From a virus, in the UHGV virus genome UHGV-0133264: a stretch of DNA of 21,778 nt. One strand, written 5' to 3'. Of this stretch, positions 4,189 through 19,738 are shown piece by piece (positions within the stretch are counted from its first letter, which is position 1; the number at the start of each line of letters is the position of its first letter). Both the position numbers and the translations under genes were made by a program. The notes below the pieces were generated by a model. It was not told where the DNA came from. It saw only the letters and a list, made by a program, of their open reading frames with translations, and did not search any database.

Positions 4189-4318
4189 TTAACCGATTCT
4201 ACGAGTAGTCATTTGTTCATTGAGTAGGAATATTGTTGTCTGGGGGGTAATCAGTGTAGGTGGAATGAGGGATATGATATGGTTATCACATAATCAGGTT
4301 GTTTTGAGTAAAACAATA

Positions 4319-4346
4319 AAACGCCCTTTAATGGGCGTTTTTTTAA
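4319..4346. terminator. Bidirectional rho-independent terminator downstream of the sim-like operon
   Basis: Stem AAACGCCC, loop TTTAAT, stem GGGCGTTT, followed by TTTT on the plus strand and preceded by an A-run, so a U-tract follows the hairpin on either strand. Confidence 0.55.
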
Positions 4347-4373
4347 AACTTAAATTGACTATCCTTTCAAATA

Positions 4374-5186
4374 CTATTTTAATTCTATGTAATTTTTAAA
4401 TTCTCCCTCATATTTATACATGATGCTATCAAATCCTTCCATTACATCAACGAATTGTTGTGAACATTCCGGCTTCCAAGGCGTACACTTACGAACCATA
4501 TCCATTTTTTTCTTATCCTTCGTTGTATCGACTAAGGATAGGTACCCTATAAAATTCATCATCTGAACAGGATCTTGATTTGTGAATATATATTTGACGT
4601 TTTGCTTAGTAGGCGAAAAAGAATCAAAAGCAGGGAACATATATTCACCAGAAAAAGAGAGTGCAGCATCAATGACGTCTGTTGCAGGAGTGCAGTTGCT
4701 CAGAATTGGCACTAAGCTAAAATTAGCACCTGAGCACACTGCATATATATCATCCCCTTTTTTTAGTTTTAACAGAGAGTCTTGCTTTGAATCCAATATT
4801 TTCAATTTGATATAATTTAGTGGCGTTGCATTTTCCCCTGGAGTAAATAACTCTACAATTGGTTTATTATTCACCATTCTTATGGATTTTATTTCACCAT
4901 ACACAATTGGAATTGTGTTCCATTTTTCCTGAGCAGCAAATTCATTATCTTTAAAATCATTAACCAACTCAGATGGCAAATGATAACCAAATTGATTGTT
5001 CATTGCTTTCGAAGCAAATCCAGACAAATAGAATGCCCTTACTAAATCATAATCTTTCTTTGAGGTAGAAAGCCAATCTGGCAATTTATTATCAGCTATC
5101 GCGCTTCCAGCAAAAATAGCACAACAAAATGTTATTACATTAAATAATTTCATTTTCCATTCACTCATTAATCGGTTTAAACTCAC
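4374..5186 (-). CDS. Secreted protein with N-terminal signal peptide; Sim-like superinfection-exclusion candidate (P1 simC position)
   Basis: 270-aa ORF. Internal Met 12 (about 5153) begins MKLFNVITFCCAIFAGSAIA, a classic signal peptide with an AxA cleavage site. AT-rich coding region with many Lys and Asn codons. Confidence 0.55.
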   Translation of the reverse strand: MSLNRLMSEWKMKLFNVITFCCAIFAGSAIADNKLPDWLSTSKKDYDLVRAFYLSGFASKAMNNQFGYHLPSELVNDFKDNEFAAQEKWNTIPIVYGEIKSIRMVNNKPIVELFTPGENATPLNYIKLKILDSKQDSLLKLKKGDDIYAVCSGANFSLVPILSNCTPATDVIDAALSFSGEYMFPAFDSFSPTKQNVKYIFTNQDPVQMMNFIGYLSLVDTTKDKKKMDMVRKCTPWKPECSQQFVDVMEGFDSIMYKYEGEFKNYIELK

Positions 5187-5496
5187 TAATTAATTCACCA
5201 AGACTATTTGGGTATGCTTTATAAATAACATACTCCGAAGAGCCATCTGAATATTGGTAAACCCCATAACAGACCAGTTTATTTATTCCTTTCTGAATAG
5301 TTTTTTGATTATAAGAATCAACCACTGTTATTCCATATGACGATAATATTTCGTTATATTCTTCAATAAGAGCTTTTCTTGTTTCCACTGAATTACAATC
5401 TACCTTCGAAAAGTCAACTTCATCAGCAAAAACATTAAATGTTAAAAAGGAAAGCACTAAAAACAAACGAATCAGCATAAATCCACTCCTACGCAT
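5161..5496 (-). CDS. Small secreted protein with signal peptide (P1 simB position)
   Basis: ORF of 111 aa. The likely start is Met 7 (about 5478), preceded by AGGAG, giving MLIRLFLVLSFLTFNVFA as signal peptide. Confidence 0.5.
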   Translation of the reverse strand: MRRSGFMLIRLFLVLSFLTFNVFADEVDFSKVDCNSVETRKALIEEYNEILSSYGITVVDSYNQKTIQKGINKLVCYGVYQYSDGSSEYVIYKAYPNSLGELISEFKPINE

Positions 5497-5499
5497 GGA

Positions 5500-5631
5500 T
5501 TAATAGTCATTGATCGCAAAGGCGTAAACTTGCCAAAGGTATTTCGTATAATCGGTACAAATCTCCTTTACGCTTGATGCTGCATTAACAGTCCCAGCCA
5601 TAAATAATAACGATAGTAATAGTTTTCTCAT
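5500..5631 (-). CDS. Unlisted 43-aa secreted peptide (MRKLLLSLLFMAGTVNAASSVKEICTDYTKYLWQVYAFAINDY); P1 simA position
   Basis: Found by reading the minus strand; too short for the ORF track. AGGTGAG Shine-Dalgarno about 7 nt upstream of the ATG. Signal peptide with VNA-A cleavage site. Its stop lies 3 nt before the next gene's upstream ATG. Confidence 0.4.
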   Translation of the reverse strand: MRKLLLSLLFMAGTVNAASSVKEICTDYTKYLWQVYAFAINDY

Positions 5632-5727
5632 TATAAACTCACCTGCCTTATCACCCATTTAGGGTACATATTTTCGCCTTTAAAAAAAAGAGGTTATTAG
5701 ATCCAACTGTGTATTTATTAAGCAGAT

Positions 5728-5744
5728 AATGCTCTAATAAATTT
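5728..5744 (+). promoter_or_regulatory. C1 repressor operator (Op51-type), 16/17 match to ATTGCTCTAATAAATTT
   Basis: AATGCTCTAATAAATTT seen directly. Sits between the divergent sim-like operon and the c4-icd-ant operon, about 40 bp upstream of a consensus promoter. Confidence 0.7.
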
Positions 5745-9161: not shown

Positions 9162-9211
9162 TAGATTGCTCTAATCTGGAGTCACCTGGCGTTTTCAGTT
9201 TGAGGTCGGAG

Positions 9212-9457
9212 ATGCAATCTGATTTTTTACAGTTAGCGATCGCTTTTGCAGGATATGTTTGCATTGGCTTCTGTGTATACATGATCAGCCGAAAAATACT
9301 TGTCGATATCGACCGCAAAGAACGAGCAGAGGAAATCTTAGTATGGATTTTCTTTGGCGCGGTCTGGCCATTAGGGATCATGTTTGCTGCAACATTTCTT
9401 CTGATGTGGATATTCACCCTTCCAGGTGATTTCTATAGAAAAAAAGCCAGACATTGA
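9212..9457 (+). CDS. Small two-helix membrane protein (possible P1 rlfA position)
   Basis: Listed ORF 9131-9457; the likely start is the internal ATG at 9212 with GAGG upstream, giving MQSDFLQLAIAFAGYVCIGFCVYMI... Two hydrophobic segments. Confidence 0.4.
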   Translation: MQSDFLQLAIAFAGYVCIGFCVYMISRKILVDIDRKERAEEILVWIFFGAVWPLGIMFAATFLLMWIFTLPGDFYRKKARH

Positions 9458-9639
9458 TACACCCGCTGCGGGTGCTTGAGGCTATCTGCTTCAGGCATTA
9501 CCCGACAAGCAGATAGAAAAAAGCCCCAGATAACATTACGCGTCCTGCAAGACGCTTAACATTAATCTGAGGCCATATCTATGCTTAGCATACGTAGATT
9601 AGCCCTCTCCCCTTTTAAGGAGCAAGGAATTTTTTACTG

Positions 9640-10272
9640 CTATGCCGCCTTTCCAGTTATGGATTCAGCGACAAGAACAACCCCATGCTTACTTCGATCT
9701 GGGTGTTCACTCCATATCTCGGATTCAGGAATACTTTCCCCGTCATAGCAAACACGTTCGCCGTCAAACGGGTAATACTGAGCGGCATCGGTGTCGAGGA
9801 TAAACACTTTTAGCTCGGAAGAGCGACGGGCGATGTGTTGCCAAAGAGCTTTTCCACCTTCGTATTGCTCATTATCACTGAGCAAAACAACACCAGCTTT
9901 TGAGGCTACGGTTTCGTAAACAAAAGTAGCTAAACCGACATCCCGGACGGTTCCATCAACCACGATACCTTCAATCTGGGCAACATCGCTATCCTCCCAG
10001 AACTTCCTTACCAGTACGCCTTCAAGCTGCGGGCGACGTTGAAGTTCAAGAGTAGCGACAACCTTATGGCGCATATCACCATCGATAACAGAAGGCGCAG
10101 CCTCTATTACAGCTGCAAATGGGGTTTTGGAATCCCATATAACCTGGTAAAGCACACCCTGGATGGTAACTCCGTCCAGGATCGAAAATCGACGAGCGAC
10201 AGTACCCGGGGAGTACGACATTGGAATCACAGCCATTTTAGAGTCCCCCTTTAACAGTACAGGCACAAACAT
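9640..10272 (-). CDS. Hypothetical protein (possible rlfB/pmgF position)
   Basis: 210-aa ORF. The likely start is Met 13 (about 10236), preceded by AAGGGGGA. Monocistronic: promoter-like AT-rich region upstream and the terminator of the neighbouring operon beyond it. Confidence 0.5.
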   Translation of the reverse strand: MFVPVLLKGDSKMAVIPMSYSPGTVARRFSILDGVTIQGVLYQVIWDSKTPFAAVIEAAPSVIDGDMRHKVVATLELQRRPQLEGVLVRKFWEDSDVAQIEGIVVDGTVRDVGLATFVYETVASKAGVVLLSDNEQYEGGKALWQHIARRSSELKVFILDTDAAQYYPFDGERVCYDGESIPESEIWSEHPDRSKHGVVLVAESITGKAA

Positions 10273-10363
10273 CTACCTCAATAATTGTAGTTTATTAGAA
10301 CATTAATAATCTAACATAAAACTCCAGACAATGTTATCGATGCATTTTTATATAAAAAGGTTA

Positions 10364-10386
10364 TAAAAAAAGCTCCCGAAGGAGCT
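10364..10386 (-). terminator. Rho-independent terminator ending the late head/sheath/tube operon
   Basis: On the minus strand: stem AGCTCC, loop TTCG, stem GGAGCT, followed by TTTTTTT. Lies about 20 bp after the stop of the 169-aa gene. Confidence 0.7.
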
Positions 10387-12370: not shown

Positions 12371-13960
12371 TTACTTAATAAGCAGCGGTACGCCCTGGAT
12401 ACGACGGGCTACACCTGTCGGGCAGCAGGCCCAGACCACTTCCCATTTATCGAATTCCGCCTGCGTAACTTTCAGCACATACGGTTCTGTACCGTCAGCA
12501 TCCGGATCACGCGGAGCCACCAGAGCGCCAGAGGCGACAAAGCGATCTAAAAGTTTGGTCATCCCTTTAGTCAGGCCAGACTCAGTAATGCCGTCCGGGT
12601 TATGCTTCATCTGTCGGGCTAGCTGGACAAAGAAACGGCTGATTGCGTTCATCAAGGATGGTACGTGCTGGAAATGCAGATAGTTGTCCTGCGTGCAGCA
12701 AGTTAAAGCATCATCGATGATCATCTGGCCAGAGGTGCCTACAGATACTTTATTGAGACGCCCCTTAACCATAGCTTCTTCGTCCGGGGTGTCTTCCGGA
12801 TACAGCGGCTGAAGTGATGCTCGAGCAATGACGGCACGTTCTTCACCAGCCGGTGAGTAATGCCAACCGCCGACATCGGAGTTTTTCTTAACGCCACGAG
12901 CTTTCGCCGCATACGCCGCGCCAGACAGACCGAAGACCACACGGGATTGGGTCCATTTGTCTTTGCAGGAGAACGGAAAGTGATAGACAGCACAGCTTAC
13001 ATAATCGGTACCAAGTAAACCGGTATCTTCAACAGCAGAGATCGCTTCCGTGTACGTCAATGTCGGTTTGACATCAAAGAAGCCATCAATCAGGCGATCA
13101 GAACAGATATTACCTAACGCGGTGATCGCCGCATTGTCATAGCAACCCAGGCCGAGAACAGCGGTGTACATGTACGGCGCATTGTTCAGCACTTTCACCG
13201 CACGCAGGTAAGCAGCAGTTGAGATTTTCGACTGATCGCCGTTGGTACCGCCAGTGAACGCCAGCGATTTTTTATTTGTTACTTTCGCGGTAGAAATCAG
13301 CTCTTCATTAACAACCGCGCGCAGATATTTAGAACGGGCTTCCAGAGCCGTAGGCAGATAACACAAGCGGCCCATGTCATCTTTCGCTTCTTCCGCCAAA
13401 GATACAATATGTGTCTCCAGGGTCGTAACCACACCGAGCGAAGTCGTCTGGGTCAGTTTCAGGAGGAAGCGTTCATTACCTGCGCTGTCCGCAGCTGCCG
13501 TTTCGATGGTTAACTCACGCGTAGGTGAAACGCATGGGTCGCCGTCATCAACGTAGATCGCAAAGGCTTCGCCGCTATCAAGTTCAATTTCAGAACCGTA
13601 TGGCAACGCGCTGTAAGCCGGTTCGCCTGATTCATCGAACATAATAATCGGGAACTTCGCATCATCCGGAACAGCACGAACAACATAACCAGACGTTTGC
13701 TGAATAGCTTCGTACACATGACGAATTGGTTCGAACTGTGAGCCGGAAGACGGCTTCAGCGGTTCGCCGAGAACATCTTCGTAATTAGACTCAGTAACAG
13801 CGAGAACAGTAAACGGCTTGCCACGCGCAAATACGCCAATACCAGCCCATAAGCTGCTATTTAATGCAACACCGGTAGATAACGTCGCATCGGCATTGAT
13901 CGGGCTAACCGCTACGCCGGATGCATTACCTAATGACTGTTGAATTGAATATTGAGACAT
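12371..13960 (-). CDS. Tail sheath protein (P1 gene 22 position)
   Basis: 529-aa ORF immediately downstream of the major head gene and upstream of the tube/baseplate genes. AGGGAAAG Shine-Dalgarno. Assignment by synteny and size, not by alignment. Confidence 0.5.
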   Translation of the reverse strand: MSQYSIQQSLGNASGVAVSPINADATLSTGVALNSSLWAGIGVFARGKPFTVLAVTESNYEDVLGEPLKPSSGSQFEPIRHVYEAIQQTSGYVVRAVPDDAKFPIIMFDESGEPAYSALPYGSEIELDSGEAFAIYVDDGDPCVSPTRELTIETAAADSAGNERFLLKLTQTTSLGVVTTLETHIVSLAEEAKDDMGRLCYLPTALEARSKYLRAVVNEELISTAKVTNKKSLAFTGGTNGDQSKISTAAYLRAVKVLNNAPYMYTAVLGLGCYDNAAITALGNICSDRLIDGFFDVKPTLTYTEAISAVEDTGLLGTDYVSCAVYHFPFSCKDKWTQSRVVFGLSGAAYAAKARGVKKNSDVGGWHYSPAGEERAVIARASLQPLYPEDTPDEEAMVKGRLNKVSVGTSGQMIIDDALTCCTQDNYLHFQHVPSLMNAISRFFVQLARQMKHNPDGITESGLTKGMTKLLDRFVASGALVAPRDPDADGTEPYVLKVTQAEFDKWEVVWACCPTGVARRIQGVPLLIK

Positions 13961-14020
13961 AACTTTCCCTGTTATGCGCCCCGCGCGGGGGCGCTATGTT
14001 AAACGGAGAGCTTCCCCTGA

Positions 14021-15748
14021 TTACTCAGAGTCACCAGCATCAATCGTGTTACCGGTCAGGAAGTTAATTCCGCCATTTTTTGCCATAGTCAGAGTTACAC
14101 GGGTGAAGTAGTCAGCACCGTTGCGTGGATGCATATCGTTGATAGCAGAACCCCACAGAGTGGTTCGGTTGACCAGTGCCGGGGTGGTCGGATGCTGGAA
14201 TGGGATAGCCGGGACCGCATCACCAGTCACGAAGCCTGCCTTGCCCGGATTTTCATCACGGACGTAGCACAGCACATCCATCGGGCTGAACTGGATACCT
14301 TCGGCGGTCAGGTTCGTGCAAATACCTTCAGGTACTTCGTACACCTTCACGTTACCGAACAGGGTGCCGATGAAGTGAACGTACGGAGTCTGGGTATATT
14401 CTTCAGCTGGCTGGAAGAAATCCTTCGGAAGCTGTTTGAAGAAAGATGCAGCATCAGCACCAGCAAACATCCCCATCGCACCAGAAGATTTAACGCGCTC
14501 AATAATGTCGCGATATACAGTCTGGAATTTGCCGCGAATGATGGTTGCCCATACATCAAAGGACTGGTTAACCGGCAGAGCGATGTCAAAGGAGTCGGTC
14601 GCAAGAGTACGCCAGATCATGATGCGAAGACGCAGCATATCCTGTTCATGAGACAGGTATTCCTTCAGGGTGCGGAACTGTAGGGACCCCAGGTCCAGAC
14701 CAAACTCACGCTGTGCTTCATACGCCGCCTGTACCGTGTGCTCAGCCGCGATGACGAACTGGCTTGGGAACAGGGTGTAACTCTTCATTTCGTGGTTGAT
14801 AAGTGGGATCAGCTCAGGAGCTGCTTCAATATTGATCTCCGCCTCAATGGCGATCTCTGTACCTTTATCCGGCGCTTTGGAGAACGACAGGGCAATCTGA
14901 CCAATGTTGTAGTTCAGAGAGCAGGTAACAGTAATTTGTTCGCCAGCTTTGTTATTGAATGTGTGAAGCAGAGTACCGGAGCCGTTATCAACAACAGACT
15001 TAATGCGGTTAACGTAGATATTTGTACGGCCTTTGCGGATCGGGACATTCTGGCCTTCAAAGTCTTCCATCTTGAAGGTTGCGGTTTTGCTGGTGCCATC
15101 GGAACTTGCCACCAACACATAGCGGCGGCGCAGTTGGCTATACACACCAACAGATTGCATATCCAGAACATCACCCGAAGCATAAGAACCAAAAGAGGAA
15201 CCCGCTACGTTAAAGATTTCATAGATTTCGGACTTGTCACGCGTAACTGGAATGAAGGTACACGCATCAGCGGTAGCTGCCCCCAACTGAACAGGCAGGA
15301 TCATCGCGAGGAATAAAGGCAGACGCATAACACCGTCAGAAACGCTCATCATCTCTGCTGCGACGGATTCCAGCATCGCTTTATTGGTGGCATCCATGCT
15401 ATTGCGGGTGGACTCAATCAGGCAGTTTTCCAGAGTCTGGTGGCAGGAGGCCAGAATTTCCGGACGCGGCATAGATTTATGTGCTGCGGCGTAGTCAGCC
15501 AGTGCACTTGCCCACGCTGTAGCGATTTGAGCAGTGGCATTATCAGAGATACCTGCAAAAATCGGGTCTTTGCGTGCAGCTTCAAGGATAGATGCGGCAC
15601 GTGCGGCATCATCTTTGATGAATTGGTTATCAGTACCGAACTGTGCTGTACTTGCCCAGCCAAGAACGGCTTTAGAGCGTTTTGCGATATCTGCAATACG
15701 ATTCTGGTATTCGCGTAAGTTACTCAAGTTACTCTTCCTTAAACACAA
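14021..15748 (-). CDS. Major head (capsid) protein precursor (P1 gene 23 position)
   Basis: 575-aa ORF adjacent to parS. N-terminal ~130 aa are Ala-rich and helical, consistent with a cleaved delta/scaffold domain. The listed start is TTG; a second TTG seven codons in is preceded by AAGGAAGAG and is the more likely start. Confidence 0.55.
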   Translation of the reverse strand: MCLRKSNLSNLREYQNRIADIAKRSKAVLGWASTAQFGTDNQFIKDDAARAASILEAARKDPIFAGISDNATAQIATAWASALADYAAAHKSMPRPEILASCHQTLENCLIESTRNSMDATNKAMLESVAAEMMSVSDGVMRLPLFLAMILPVQLGAATADACTFIPVTRDKSEIYEIFNVAGSSFGSYASGDVLDMQSVGVYSQLRRRYVLVASSDGTSKTATFKMEDFEGQNVPIRKGRTNIYVNRIKSVVDNGSGTLLHTFNNKAGEQITVTCSLNYNIGQIALSFSKAPDKGTEIAIEAEINIEAAPELIPLINHEMKSYTLFPSQFVIAAEHTVQAAYEAQREFGLDLGSLQFRTLKEYLSHEQDMLRLRIMIWRTLATDSFDIALPVNQSFDVWATIIRGKFQTVYRDIIERVKSSGAMGMFAGADAASFFKQLPKDFFQPAEEYTQTPYVHFIGTLFGNVKVYEVPEGICTNLTAEGIQFSPMDVLCYVRDENPGKAGFVTGDAVPAIPFQHPTTPALVNRTTLWGSAINDMHPRNGADYFTRVTLTMAKNGGINFLTGNTIDAGDSE

Positions 15749-15849
15749 GGCACTTGTGTGAATCCCTTTTCGGAAGAGATTTTATTGAAAGTCACTTGTT
15801 GACTTTCTCACGAAAAGTAATTTTTTAAATTTTTTATGCGGGGAAGTGG

Positions 15850-15950
15850 ACGGTGAAAGCAGGCGTTAAATCGTGGGAATTTCAGTCTGAAATTTTTCTA
15901 AAAAATATATTCAAATCATAATATTAGAAATGAAATTGGCGCGGGACATT
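15850..15950. promoter_or_regulatory. parS: parS partition site (ParB box A/B motifs flanking an AT-rich IHF-type core)
   Basis: Just 3' of parB. Heptamers ATTTCAG/TGAAATT/ATTTCAT and hexamer-like TCCCAC/GCGCCA motifs surround an AT-rich stretch (TTTTTCTAAAAAATATATTCAAATCATAATATTAG). Boundaries approximate. Confidence 0.55.
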
Positions 15951-15991
15951 TTAGGAAGGGGAGGGGCTAACACCACCTCCCACCAGCAGGT

Positions 15992-16957
15992 TTATTTTCC
16001 TGCGGACATTTTCTCAATGATTTTTTTTATTGCTTCGTCAATTTCAGTTTGCACTTCAGACGGGAGTCGGGAGAACTCGTAGGCGACTACCCGTTTTTTC
16101 GGATCGGTCTTCTTTCGTGCGTACTGGCGTCGGTCAGAGAAATCTCGCAGCTTCTCTACCACTACAGATTTAACCGGCGCAGGTTTCAGGCTTTTGCTTT
16201 CCGCTTTGAAGATAGCCAGTATCTTCGCTTTATCCTCTTTCGCGCCCTCAGTCTCTGCAATTCGCTCGCGCACCGTATCAACCAGTTCTCCAATCGGTAC
16301 GTTTTTAGCGTTAGCATCTTCGGAGATCTGGAGCAGCAACTGATAATCAGGCAGGGCGAGATCGCTGGCAACAGGGAAGACAGCAATCATCTCATCCGGC
16401 ACCGCCGCAGCCTGGAAAGCTCGCGTCACTTTAGCCTTTGAGATGTTCTCAGCGCGGGCGATCTCTTCTTTGGTCATGCTCTTACCGTACATAACCTCAA
16501 AGCGTTTACCCAGCTCGCGCAGAGTGTGTTCGCGAGCTGTCTGGATATCAATGGCCAGCTGGCGGGCATCCGCCAAGCTGATCTCATCTTTTGTCACCAG
16601 AATCTCAAATTTCGTTTCATTGAAGATACACGCAGCGCGGCGGCGTGATCCGTCCAATACCTCAATGCGCTCCCCAACCATACGACCGATAGCCGGGAAG
16701 AACTGTTGCAATTTAATGGTGCGGGAAATATCGCTTACCGACTCAGGAGTAAGCAGAGACTGATCGCGGCCGTTAACTGCCGGGTCAACGAACGTGCGCG
16801 ACTCAATCTCACCACTCAGCACAACGGTAAGCAAAAATTTAGCCTGGCGGCCAGATTTTAGGGTAAAGGTTTTGGTGCCTTCACTGCCTTCAAGCATGCG
16901 AGCAAACTCGGAGCTATTCTTGCCCAGCACTCGTCCACGGGAAACTATTTTCTTCAT
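15992..16957 (-). CDS. parB: ParB partition protein (centromere-binding)
   Basis: 321 aa. Contains the ParB-family motif VLDGSRRR and a helix-turn-helix region (ISKAKVTRAF). Start overlaps the parA stop by 4 nt. Confidence 0.9.
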   Translation of the reverse strand: MKKIVSRGRVLGKNSSEFARMLEGSEGTKTFTLKSGRQAKFLLTVVLSGEIESRTFVDPAVNGRDQSLLTPESVSDISRTIKLQQFFPAIGRMVGERIEVLDGSRRRAACIFNETKFEILVTKDEISLADARQLAIDIQTAREHTLRELGKRFEVMYGKSMTKEEIARAENISKAKVTRAFQAAAVPDEMIAVFPVASDLALPDYQLLLQISEDANAKNVPIGELVDTVRERIAETEGAKEDKAKILAIFKAESKSLKPAPVKSVVVEKLRDFSDRRQYARKKTDPKKRVVAYEFSRLPSEVQTEIDEAIKKIIEKMSAGK

Positions 16958-18165
16958 GCCGACTCACCCCTTACAAACTCAATCCGATCAAACACAGCCT
17001 TAGTGAAACGCTCGGCCTCGGTTCGTGCCTTCTTCAGTGCCTCAGCACTGCCTGGATATGATTGCGGGTTGGCACTGATTACGGTGTCGAAAGACTCGCC
17101 GCATCGCTCGAAGCCATCCAGGCGAGGCAGAGAAGAGTCCAGAATGTTGCTGGCGTAAACCTCGCGCGCAAGGCTGTGTGATGTCTCGTGATCACGCTTG
17201 CCGGTCATCTTCGACATAAAACCAATGCTGGCGCTTAAACGCGGCTCTACGCCTTCCTCCTCCAGTTGCTCCAGCATTTCTGGCAGACGGGTGAGATATT
17301 TCAGAGTTGAGTGGAAGTCAACCTGGGCTGGTGGGGTAGGGGTAAGCAACAGATCGCTTGCCGCCAGACCGTTAAGCAGGAACGGATCCAAGTGCGGACC
17401 GGTATCGATAAAGATAAAGTCATAATCATCAGCAACACGATCAATGATATTGCGTCGAAGGATTTCGTACTGATTTTGTCCAGGAAGATGCTCTTCAACC
17501 AGCTCTTTCCATTGGCTGGCAACAAAGCCATCGTCGATAGAGGCTGGAATCACGTCTACGCCGGGAACGATGGTCGGACGAATCACCTCTTTGCGTAGCG
17601 TCTCCGCGTCCAGGTCGTTCAGCATCGCCTGCGCGGCTGTTTCCAGAATGGATCCAATACTGTGAGTATGGTCGAGGAACATTGTGCTGGATGCCTGCGG
17701 GTCAAGGTCAATAACCAGAATGCGCAGATCGTGACGCAGTAAATCCTGATGCACACGCAGCGCGTGCGCCAGCGTGACTGTGGAAACCGTTTTAGATACG
17801 CCACCTTTCAGGTTTACGACAAAAATAACGTAAGGCGATTTGTGAATGTCGCGATATTTGGGAATCTTGCGGTGGGCATAGATATCAATGACGTTCTGGA
17901 TAGTGAGCGCGTACTGTTCAACGTTACCGACCTGTTTCTTGTTGAACTGGTACCCATCATCTTCCATCTCTTTGATGGCCTGCTCCACAATGCGGCGGCT
18001 CAGCTTCGGCAACTTTGCCACAGCGTTACGAGTAAACGTCTGATAATACTCGGTCTGATTGAACTCTTTGCGCTGATCTTCGATATCCTGGCTCATGGCC
18101 TTCAGCAATGCGCTTGCACGAAGAGCTATGGTGCCGACACCGCCGTAATCGCGTTTCATCATCAT
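16954..18165 (-). CDS. parA: ParA partition ATPase (type Ia, long N-terminal regulatory domain)
   Basis: 403 aa. Deviant Walker A NLKGGVSKTVST, Walker A' ILVIDLDPQ, Walker B FIFIDTGP. AAGGAG directly followed by ATGATGATG; the third ATG (18159) is the likeliest start. Confidence 0.9.
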   Translation of the reverse strand: MMMKRDYGGVGTIALRASALLKAMSQDIEDQRKEFNQTEYYQTFTRNAVAKLPKLSRRIVEQAIKEMEDDGYQFNKKQVGNVEQYALTIQNVIDIYAHRKIPKYRDIHKSPYVIFVVNLKGGVSKTVSTVTLAHALRVHQDLLRHDLRILVIDLDPQASSTMFLDHTHSIGSILETAAQAMLNDLDAETLRKEVIRPTIVPGVDVIPASIDDGFVASQWKELVEEHLPGQNQYEILRRNIIDRVADDYDFIFIDTGPHLDPFLLNGLAASDLLLTPTPPAQVDFHSTLKYLTRLPEMLEQLEEEGVEPRLSASIGFMSKMTGKRDHETSHSLAREVYASNILDSSLPRLDGFERCGESFDTVISANPQSYPGSAEALKKARTEAERFTKAVFDRIEFVRGESA

Positions 18166-18188
18166 CTCCTTATCGTTTCGTATAAGTG

Positions 18189-18253
18189 AATTGTACGTGT
18201 GATTCTGTTACGTGCAACTTTTTTTGATATGTGCGTTATTTATTGCACGTTAT
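18189..18253 (-). promoter_or_regulatory. par operon promoter with ParA operator-like inverted repeat
   Basis: On the minus strand: TTGCAC, ~16-nt spacer, TACAAT, about 25 nt upstream of the parA Shine-Dalgarno. Inverted repeat ACGTGCAA ... TTGCACGT overlaps the -35. Confidence 0.5.
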
Positions 18254-18274
18254 GCGGTAGCGAAGAGTCTATTC

Positions 18275-18558
18275 GATGTGTGCTGGAGGGATGATGAAGA
18301 CCCAGAATGTGCGATAGAGGGAAGTCGCATTGAATTATGTGTTGTGGAGGGATCGCAGGTATCAAATATGTGCGCTGAAGGGAAAGGCAGAGGATTAGAT
18401 GTGCGCTGGAGGGAAAACCGGATGGTTAGATGTGTGCTGGAGGGAAAGTCTGGACAAACTGTGGGGCGCCGCCCTCCAGCGCACACCAAAAACAGGAAAA
18501 TGGGTAGGTATTCCCGGCAGCGCACATTTTTCAAATGCAGCTGCCCTCCAGCACACAC
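18275..18558. repeat. incA: incA copy-control iteron array: nine ~19-bp RepA-binding repeats, six in one orientation and three inverted
   Basis: Repeats of the form GATGTGTGCTGGAGGGAAA at about 18275, 18306, 18336, 18366, 18398 and 18428, then inverted copies (CCCTCCAGCGCACAC-type) at about 18472, 18511 and 18543. Directly 3' of the repA stop. Confidence 0.9.
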
Positions 18559-19419
18559 TTATTCGGGAAGTTTCAGCTTTGGATTGCGAGAATGGACGAT
18601 TACAAAACTTTCCCGGCCTTTCTTCTCAATTGAACAGTCGAGATAGCCGATTGTTTTAAGCTGTTCTATCGCTTTCTTAATGATACGGTTTTGTTCGCCA
18701 ACGGCTGACTGCAAAGCCAGGCGCTCGCGGATTCGCGCGAACGATAGCGGCAACGGGTTCTGCGGAAGGCTTTCAATGAAGGTGTAAATAGCTTGCGCAG
18801 CTTCTTTCTTCGGAAGGGCACGCAAGGCGTGGTGCTGCAACAGGACGCGATAATCAAGCTGGAACAGCTCCCACAGCTTCGAGTCGGCTTCCAGCTCGAT
18901 CAGATCGAGGTCAGCATCGAAACGTCCGACCTTCAACAGACCAGTCTGGTAGCCACCTTTAGCATCTTTACCGCGCTTAAAAGCGATACCCTTGTTACGC
19001 AAGCGGCCAAGTGATTCATGAATGGTTAAACGCAGTTTCGCATCCAGACGTTTTGAGGGGAAACCACAGGCTTTAGCGAATTCCTGAAACGATAACTGGA
19101 TGGTGTTTGAGGACAAGCCGTATTTGCTGAACGCGTAGATAACACCGATCCACGTTTTGAAATCAGTATCCATATCGAGTCGAGGACCGGTGATTTTAAT
19201 GTCATCGTAACCTTCGGCTTTAGCTATCTCCAACTGAGAAAACGCTTTGGTGGCATCAATCTCTTTACTTTCTCCTTTGCTCTTTGATGGCTTCGGCACG
19301 AATACCCCCAAACGCATCAACGCTACAGGCTGCACAGTGTTGTTTGAATTAACTGTTAGTTCTTTTGCCTTACTCTCAATGTCTGCGTAAAGAATATCGG
19401 AGATAAAAGATTGATTCAT
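18559..19419 (-). CDS. repA: RepA plasmid replication initiator (iteron-binding)
   Basis: Listed ORF 18559-19512; the upstream 31 codons run into the incC iterons, so the real start is Met 32 at 19419 (MNQSFISDILYADIESKAKELTVNSNN..., 286 aa). Flanked by iterons on both sides. Sequence matches my recollection of P1 RepA. Confidence 0.9.
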   Translation of the reverse strand: MNQSFISDILYADIESKAKELTVNSNNTVQPVALMRLGVFVPKPSKSKGESKEIDATKAFSQLEIAKAEGYDDIKITGPRLDMDTDFKTWIGVIYAFSKYGLSSNTIQLSFQEFAKACGFPSKRLDAKLRLTIHESLGRLRNKGIAFKRGKDAKGGYQTGLLKVGRFDADLDLIELEADSKLWELFQLDYRVLLQHHALRALPKKEAAQAIYTFIESLPQNPLPLSFARIRERLALQSAVGEQNRIIKKAIEQLKTIGYLDCSIEKKGRESFVIVHSRNPKLKLPE

Positions 19420-19476
19420 ATTAGCTTTTCCAGAATTATGTGGATAGTTTTTATAAGTGATGATAACTACCCATGC

Positions 19477-19580
19477 TTTCCCGTCAGCACACATCCTATA
19501 TCCCGCCAGCACACATTAGCAACCCGTCAGCACACATTTTTTTCCCTCCAGCGCACATCGTTTTCCCTCCAGCACACATC
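19477..19580. repeat. incC: incC iterons (five 19-bp RepA-binding repeats at ~21-bp spacing) forming part of oriR and carrying the repA promoter
   Basis: TTTCCCGTCAGCACACATC, ATCCCGCCAGCACACATT, CAACCCGTCAGCACACATT, TTTCCCTCCAGCGCACATC, TTTCCCTCCAGCACACATC, all in the same orientation. Confidence 0.9.
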
Positions 19581-19619
19581 GCGAAAGGCTTCTAAGCCAG
19601 ACGTGGCGCGGCCTGCAAC

Positions 19620-19697
19620 GATCAGGGATCTATATGGATCTAATTAGGATCTGTATGGGTCTAATTATTGGATCTATCCAGTGGATAATGTGGATAA
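19620..19697. other. oriR: oriR core: five GATC (Dam) sites in short repeats plus two tandem DnaA boxes
   Basis: GATC at about 19620, 19627, 19637, 19648 and 19671 within GGATCT repeats. AGTGGATAA and TGTGGATAA (perfect DnaA box TTATCCACA on the other strand) at about 19680-19697. Confidence 0.85.
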
Positions 19698-19738
19698 GTG
19701 AAAAACCGGCCAACGTAGCCGGTTGGAAGGGAGTCGTA

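Follow-up and report, generated by a model that had tools for sequence, protein, structure and literature searches.

The window, the whole 21,778-nucleotide (21.8-kb) stretch of DNA that was analysed, comes from a phage-plasmid of the P1/P7-like kind (Punavirus). From sit, across the tail and capsid genes, and on into the region for plasmid maintenance, it is colinear with both P7 and P1, and it is ~96% identical to many IncY phage-plasmids of E. coli, Salmonella, and Enterobacter. On one side of the partition (par) cassette is capsid gene 23, and on the other the IncY replicon, which comprises incA, repA, and oriR (Table 1). The stop codon of parA overlaps the start of parB by 4 nt. An earlier sequence-only reading had placed the par module at 15,850–18,253, bounds that enclose it well now that parS, parB, parA, and the promoter/operator region have been mapped. 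Pfam and PADLOC scans of the other variable ORFs in the window returned nothing significant.

The replicon beside the cassette carries all the features of the IncY (P1/P7) type: RepA, the 19-bp iterons of incC and incA, DnaA boxes, and a GATC cluster. RepA is identical to both P1 RepA and P7 RepA at all 286 of its 286 residues, and the repA gene differs from its relatives by 29–38 synonymous and 0 non-synonymous substitutions. The 14 incA/incC iterons occupy the P1 positions and agree with P1 at 247 of 266 bases (93%), with 0–3 mismatches in each incA iteron, and the DnaA box pair is identical to that of P1. The earlier statement that RepA and the iterons follow P1 almost residue for residue therefore holds.

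Table 1. Positions of genes and sites at the par locus and its flanks
Feature	Coordinates	Strand	Remarks
gene 22	12371-13960	-	
gene 23 (capsid)	14021-15727	-	
parS centromere	15865-15947	-	83 bp
BoxA4 ATTTAAC	15865-15871	read in par direction	P7 has GTTTCAC
BoxB2 TTCCCA	15874-15879	read in par direction	as in P7
BoxA3 CTGAAAT	15879-15885	read in par direction	as in P7
BoxA2 ATTTCAG	15887-15893	read in par direction	as in P7
IHF-like core	15914-15926	read in par direction	at the position annotated in P7
BoxA1 ATTTCAT	15930-15936	read in par direction	as in P7
BoxB1 GTCCCG	15942-15947	read in par direction	as in P7
parB	15992-16957	-	321 aa; centromere-binding protein, P7 type
parA	16954-18165	-	403 aa; P7-type Walker ATPase (type Ia) with an autorepressor HTH domain at the N-terminus
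par promoter/operator region	~18166-18270	-	
incA	18275-18559	not assigned	nine 19-bp RepA iterons; mapped from P1 annotation
repA	18559-19422	-	IncY replication initiator
oriR	19477-19718	-	five incC iterons, GATC cluster, and DnaA boxes; aligned to annotated P1 oriR

Partition proteins and the par operator

ParA is identical to P7 ParA at 402 of 403 residues (99.8%), with a single substitution, and to P1 ParA at 229 of 398 (57.5%). Its best PDB match is the near-identical P7 ParA (3EZ9/3EZF), aligned over the full length (E = 3e-266), and the P1 ParA structure 3EZ2 is also matched over the full length. The Pfam domains HTH_54 (E = 3.8e-37) and AAA_31 are recognised, and the Pfam and PDB matches together give ParA the N-terminal HTH domain and deviant Walker A ATPase domain of the P1par family.

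ParB shows the same pattern, with 316 of 321 residues (98.4%) shared with P7 and 135 of 318 (42.5%) with P1. The protein matches the Pfam family ParB (PF08775, E = 3e-33), and its residues 137–316 match the P1 ParB structures 2NTZ/1ZX4, which contain P1 ParB(142–333) and a ParB–DNA complex. It thus has the HTH and the C-terminal dimer/BoxB-binding domain typical of P1par-family ParBs, encoded by a gene directly downstream of parA. Five substitutions separate it from P7 ParB (N219S, G223E, T284S, E315G, and K321E), of which T284S falls within the C-terminal dimer domain, near the part that binds BoxB. At the place of the P1 discriminator D288, the alignment has an arginine, R277; P7 and four plasmids of the P7 type also have arginine here. 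In P1, this aspartate is central to recognition of the second BoxB2 base (PMC10999674). ParA, ParB, and parS all fall clearly short of 95% identity to P1, the level above which the earlier reading was to be abandoned, and its description of the two proteins as members of the P1 family that have diverged substantially is borne out by the identities of 57.5% and 42.5%.

Upstream of parA, an inverted repeat, ACGTGCAA (18210–18217) and TTGCACGT (18243–18250), places two ACGTGC hexamers 29 bp apart (ACGTGC-29 bp-GCACGT). ACGTGC repeats at this distance form the perfect IR1-1' ParA-binding motif of the P7 promoter PparAB (PMC8465637), and the window thus carries a ParA operator of the P7 type. The promoter/operator region as a whole aligns with P7 and not with P1, whose operator is unrelated and whose spacer between parA and incA is ~165 bp longer.

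The parS centromere and assignment of the cassette

The parS site has the layout that defines the P1par family: it lies downstream of parB, and its predicted IHF site is flanked by BoxA heptamers (four) and BoxB hexamers (two). All seven elements map one-to-one onto annotated features of P7 and P1 parS, and BoxA1 and BoxA2 are separated by 36 bp in the window, as they are in P7 and P1. The IHF-like core AATCATAATATTA, read by eye as a predicted site, fits eight of the nine specified positions of WATCAANNNNTTR. Both BoxB hexamers are of the P7 type, (G/T)TCCC(G/A), unlike the TCGCCA of P1. The sequence-only reading had correctly recognised a non-P1 box in "TCCCAC" but set it one base out of register, since it is BoxB2 followed by a C; its "ATTTAAC" applies to BoxA4 and not to the other three heptamers. 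It had also proposed that these boxes and the matching ParB region set partition incompatibility. This agrees with the finding that BoxB and the ParB aspartate determine P1-specific partition incompatibility (PMC10999674).

Identity across parS is 65/83 to P7, 51/83 to P1, and 80/83 to a locus in IMG/VR, L030 (IMGVR_UViG_2913167280_000003). The site is the least P7-like stretch of the cassette, 78% identical compared with 95–97% for the par genes, and two of the 18 differing positions belong to BoxA4, while most belong to the IHF spacer. Natural P7-type sites vary in the same places. Among 31 such sites in IMG/VR, BoxA4 reads GTTTCAC in 13, ATTTAAC in 11, ATTTCAC in five, and TTTTCAC in two; several spacer haplotypes occur, and roughly one in three natural P7-type cassettes has the haplotype of the window. 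The variant parS, with its diverged IHF spacer and ATTTAAC at BoxA4, is the sole local peculiarity and a naturally common form.

Comparison with known systems places the cassette closest to P7 par (AF503408/X17529) among the characterised ones. The two share their locus, gene order, 4-nt parA/parB overlap, and neighbouring IncY RepA, as well as BoxB1, BoxB2, BoxA1–A3, the length of the 36-bp spacer, and the ACGTGC operator repeat. They differ by ~4–5% at the nucleotide level, nearly all of it synonymous, by the 18 parS positions, and by the five ParB substitutions and the one in ParA. Phage P1 par (parA-parB-parS/incB; NC_005856) resembles the cassette in family, architecture, genome position, and box arrangement, and adjoins an identical RepA and near-identical iterons; it differs in its BoxB sequence, in its discriminator residue, and at the operator. 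The sequence-only reading had listed P7 as a comparator, and the par cassette was not recognised there as that of P7 in its normal P7 context.

The closest natural relatives among the matches listed are L030, 98.6% identical over the cassette and carrying the parS haplotype of the window, and IncY phage-plasmids such as pB16EC0268-4 (CP088811), 95.4–96.1% identical over the cassette; both differ from the window by a few synonymous changes. In the phage, plasmid, and E. coli collections, none of the matches listed exceeds ~96–97% identity over the cassette. The par systems of pMT1 (Yersinia pestis) and of Klebsiella and Citrobacter plasmids also belong to the P1par family and form a distinct identity band, with ParBs 64–70% identical to that of the window, closer than those of P1. 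Systems of the pMT1 type reportedly have a distinct BoxB specificity.

Because the two Par proteins are nearly identical to those of P7, and the B boxes, locus, and junctions agree with P7, the module is best read as an intact P1par-family ParABS cassette of type Ia, the phage P7 allele in its usual place, with P7 partition specificity expected (probability roughly 0.93); none of the observations speaks against this reading. The expected specificity follows from the BoxB sequences (xTCCCx) and from ParB R277, which are as in P7.

It is improbable that a P7-related cassette has instead drifted to a new specificity, compatible with both P1 and P7, through its variant parS and ParB substitutions such as that at T284. 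Such a shift would be in keeping with parS being the stretch most diverged from P7 and with T284S lying close to the BoxB-binding C-terminal domain. Single BoxB bases or ParB residues can reportedly switch specificity in the P1par family. However, both B boxes, BoxA1–A3, and R277 are identical to P7, and ParB binding needs only BoxA2–A3 and BoxB2, the latter setting incompatibility (PMC10999674). The parS and ParB differences from P7 include none at known discriminators, and all are found in other natural P7-type cassettes. The T284/S284 polymorphism is common to natural cassettes with identical B boxes, and T or S at residue 284 occurs in mixed combinations with the BoxA4 variants, all with BoxB2 TTCCCA, so that this variation looks like neutral polymorphism. 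BoxB1 varies only in two of the natural P7-type cassettes (L009 and L017). By the same measure, there is only a slim chance that the parS haplotype of the window (BoxA4 ATTTAAC and the diverged IHF spacer) and ParB T284 together confer a sub-specificity or a weaker cross-reaction with canonical P7 par; if they did, partition-incompatibility groups would be splitting within the P7 type.

Mosaic boundaries and age of the cassette

Relative to P1, nucleotide identity drops from 93–99% in the flanks to 30–70% across ~15,900–18,270. A megablast search with positions 13,000–19,500 aligns P7 end to end at 94.3%; the P1 alignment breaks into two pieces, with par left out. The junction on the right is sharp and falls at ~18,270, immediately before the first incA iteron, where P1 has the ~165 extra bases and the unrelated operator; the left junction lies in parS or just beyond it. 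The swap relative to P1 covers roughly 15.8/15.9 kb to 18.27 kb, and incA is the right flank, part of the IncY replicon and outside the swapped cassette. The proposal that the par module is heterologous and the maintenance region mosaic is therefore sound as a statement relative to P1, a P1-identical RepA standing beside a non-P1 par.

It is very hard to credit that these are the P1 par genes, changed at their original site by unusually fast evolution with no cassette replacement. Gene order, locus, and parS architecture are as in P1 and would accord with such a history, yet flanks 93–99% identical to P1, with a dS of ~0.2, adjoin a ParA and a ParB with only 57% and 42% identity. The abrupt right junction, the extra ~165 bp of P1, and the unrelated operators also argue against it, as does the affinity of ParB, which is nearer to plasmid ParBs from Yersinia pestis and Klebsiella (64–70%) than to P1-type ParBs (~43%). 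Moreover, one IMG/VR locus, L011, has a P7-type cassette beside a RepA only 41% identical to that of P1. The P1-type and P7-type alleles are far older than the divergence of the backbone, which points to an ancient cassette replacement.

At synonymous sites, the window has diverged from P7 to a similar extent inside and outside the cassette. The dS values are 0.16 for parA and 0.21 for parB, compared with 0.18 for gene 22, 0.28 for gene 23, 0.22 for repA, and 0.28 for upfA (backbone values range up to 0.29), so that a recent import of the cassette can be rejected. At ~0.007–0.03 against P7, dN/dS is low for both parA and parB, which points to a functional module. The cassette is accordingly an old resident allele that has evolved along with its backbone under strong purifying selection. 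A decaying, non-functional remnant is scarcely credible, since beyond the diverged parS spacer nothing favours it, and the full-length reading frames, the low dN/dS, and the intact ParB-binding boxes and operator repeat all contradict it.

An artificial or recoded sequence was also considered, given that no database record exceeds ~97% identity while RepA is 100% conserved. This was rejected, as the differences cluster at third codon positions, many of them are polymorphisms also seen in natural plasmids, and a 98.6% identical relative is present in IMG/VR.

Predicted incompatibility and distribution of par types

If the cassette works like the homologous systems characterised in P1 and P7, dimers of ParB would wrap parS, with IHF bending the 36-bp spacer, to form a partition complex in which the BoxA heptamers are read by the ParB HTH and the BoxB hexamers by the C-terminal dimer domain. 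The ParB–parS complex would then stimulate nucleoid-bound ParA-ATP, which would position copies of the plasmid on both sides of the division plane. The operon would be autorepressed by ParA-ADP acting at the ACGTGC inverted repeats.

On sequence grounds, the element should show no parS-mediated incompatibility with P1 in either direction, and its IncY replicon should make it replication-incompatible with P7 as well as with P1. For the element itself, we infer that the cassette is active in partition, that its parS binds IHF, and that P1 is compatible with it. P1 and P7 themselves are reportedly partition-compatible and replication-incompatible, a classical relationship said to have been set out in several studies between 1989 and 2009. 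A P7 par allele beside a P1/P7-type replicon is thus an arrangement already described, and the interpretation, though right, is not new. The locus illustrates the textbook point that the partition cassette of P1-like phage-plasmids is an exchangeable module, in which the BoxB/ParB pair sets the partition-incompatibility type independently of the replicon. For practical purposes, the appropriate typing of the element is IncY replicon, P7-type par. No new biology follows from it, as both par alleles are common beside an identical RepA in sequenced plasmids.

In PLSDB, 234 plasmids carry a P7-type cassette (at least 80% coverage) and 539 a P1-type cassette. The repA neighbourhood was sampled at four P7-type and three P1-type loci, and in every sampled plasmid of either par type the cassette adjoins an 861-bp IncY repA. 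The RepA accession WP_001076427.1 recurs in three of the P7-type records and one of the P1-type records, and all seven plasmids are typed as IncY by PLSDB. Among P1-like small-parS sites in IMG/VR, BoxB2 is TCGCCA in 66 and TTCCCA in 31. A third type is represented by L068, with a ParB 67% identical to that of P1 and BoxB2 TCCCCA. Taken with the P7-type cassette beside the divergent RepA of L011 and the mixed par types beside IncY repA, this makes reassortment of par and rep modules a general, known property of this phage-plasmid group.

Conservation and divergence in the backbone

The replication initiator gene repA (18559-19422) shows no non-synonymous differences from its counterparts in P1, P7, and plasmids, set against 29-38 synonymous ones. 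This pattern points to purifying selection of extreme strength acting on the IncY initiator. The backbone gene with the greatest divergence is gene 23, which encodes a capsid protein (14021-15727). It differs from the versions in P1, P7, and plasmid relatives by 24-25 amino-acid changes, with a dS of 0.25-0.29, and 13 amino-acid changes and a dS of 0.17 still separate it from its closest relative, the IMG/VR locus L030. Private positions make up 6.3% of the gene among the five P7-type loci compared, and patches of ~84% identity occur at 14.3 kb and 14.9 kb of the window.

Segments unlike P7

Comparison with P7 revealed two segments without similarity to that phage, 4217-5729 and 9176-10365. 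The matching positions in P7 are occupied by upf50.0/upf50.5 and by rapA/rapB/upf52.1. Pfam and PADLOC scans of the four ORFs in these segments gave no significant match. Both segments probably represent slots in which P1-like phage-plasmids carry variable cargo.

ORFs in the segments of the window dissimilar to P7
Start	End	Strand
4374	5186	-
5161	5496	-
9640	10272	-
9131	9457	+

parS-proximal features and par types beside other RepA proteins

Between BoxB1 and the parB stop (15959-15981) is a short repeat, GGGAGG...CCTCCC, that could fold into a hairpin and is kept in P7 and other P7-type cassettes. In two IMG/VR loci with P7-type parS sites, L009 and L017, BoxB1, the non-essential left B box, reads GCCCCG rather than GTCCCG; the base that differs, the second, is at the discriminator position.

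Another IMG/VR locus, L011, carries a P7-type par (92% identity for ParB and 95% for ParA) adjoining a RepA only 41% identical to that of P1; locus L034, compared at parS, has the same parS haplotype. Locus L068 (IMGVR_UViG_2773857937_000001) has a par of a third type, with BoxB2 reading TCCCCA. Its ParB and ParA are 67% and 89% identical to those of P1, and its RepA is 49% identical to P1 RepA.
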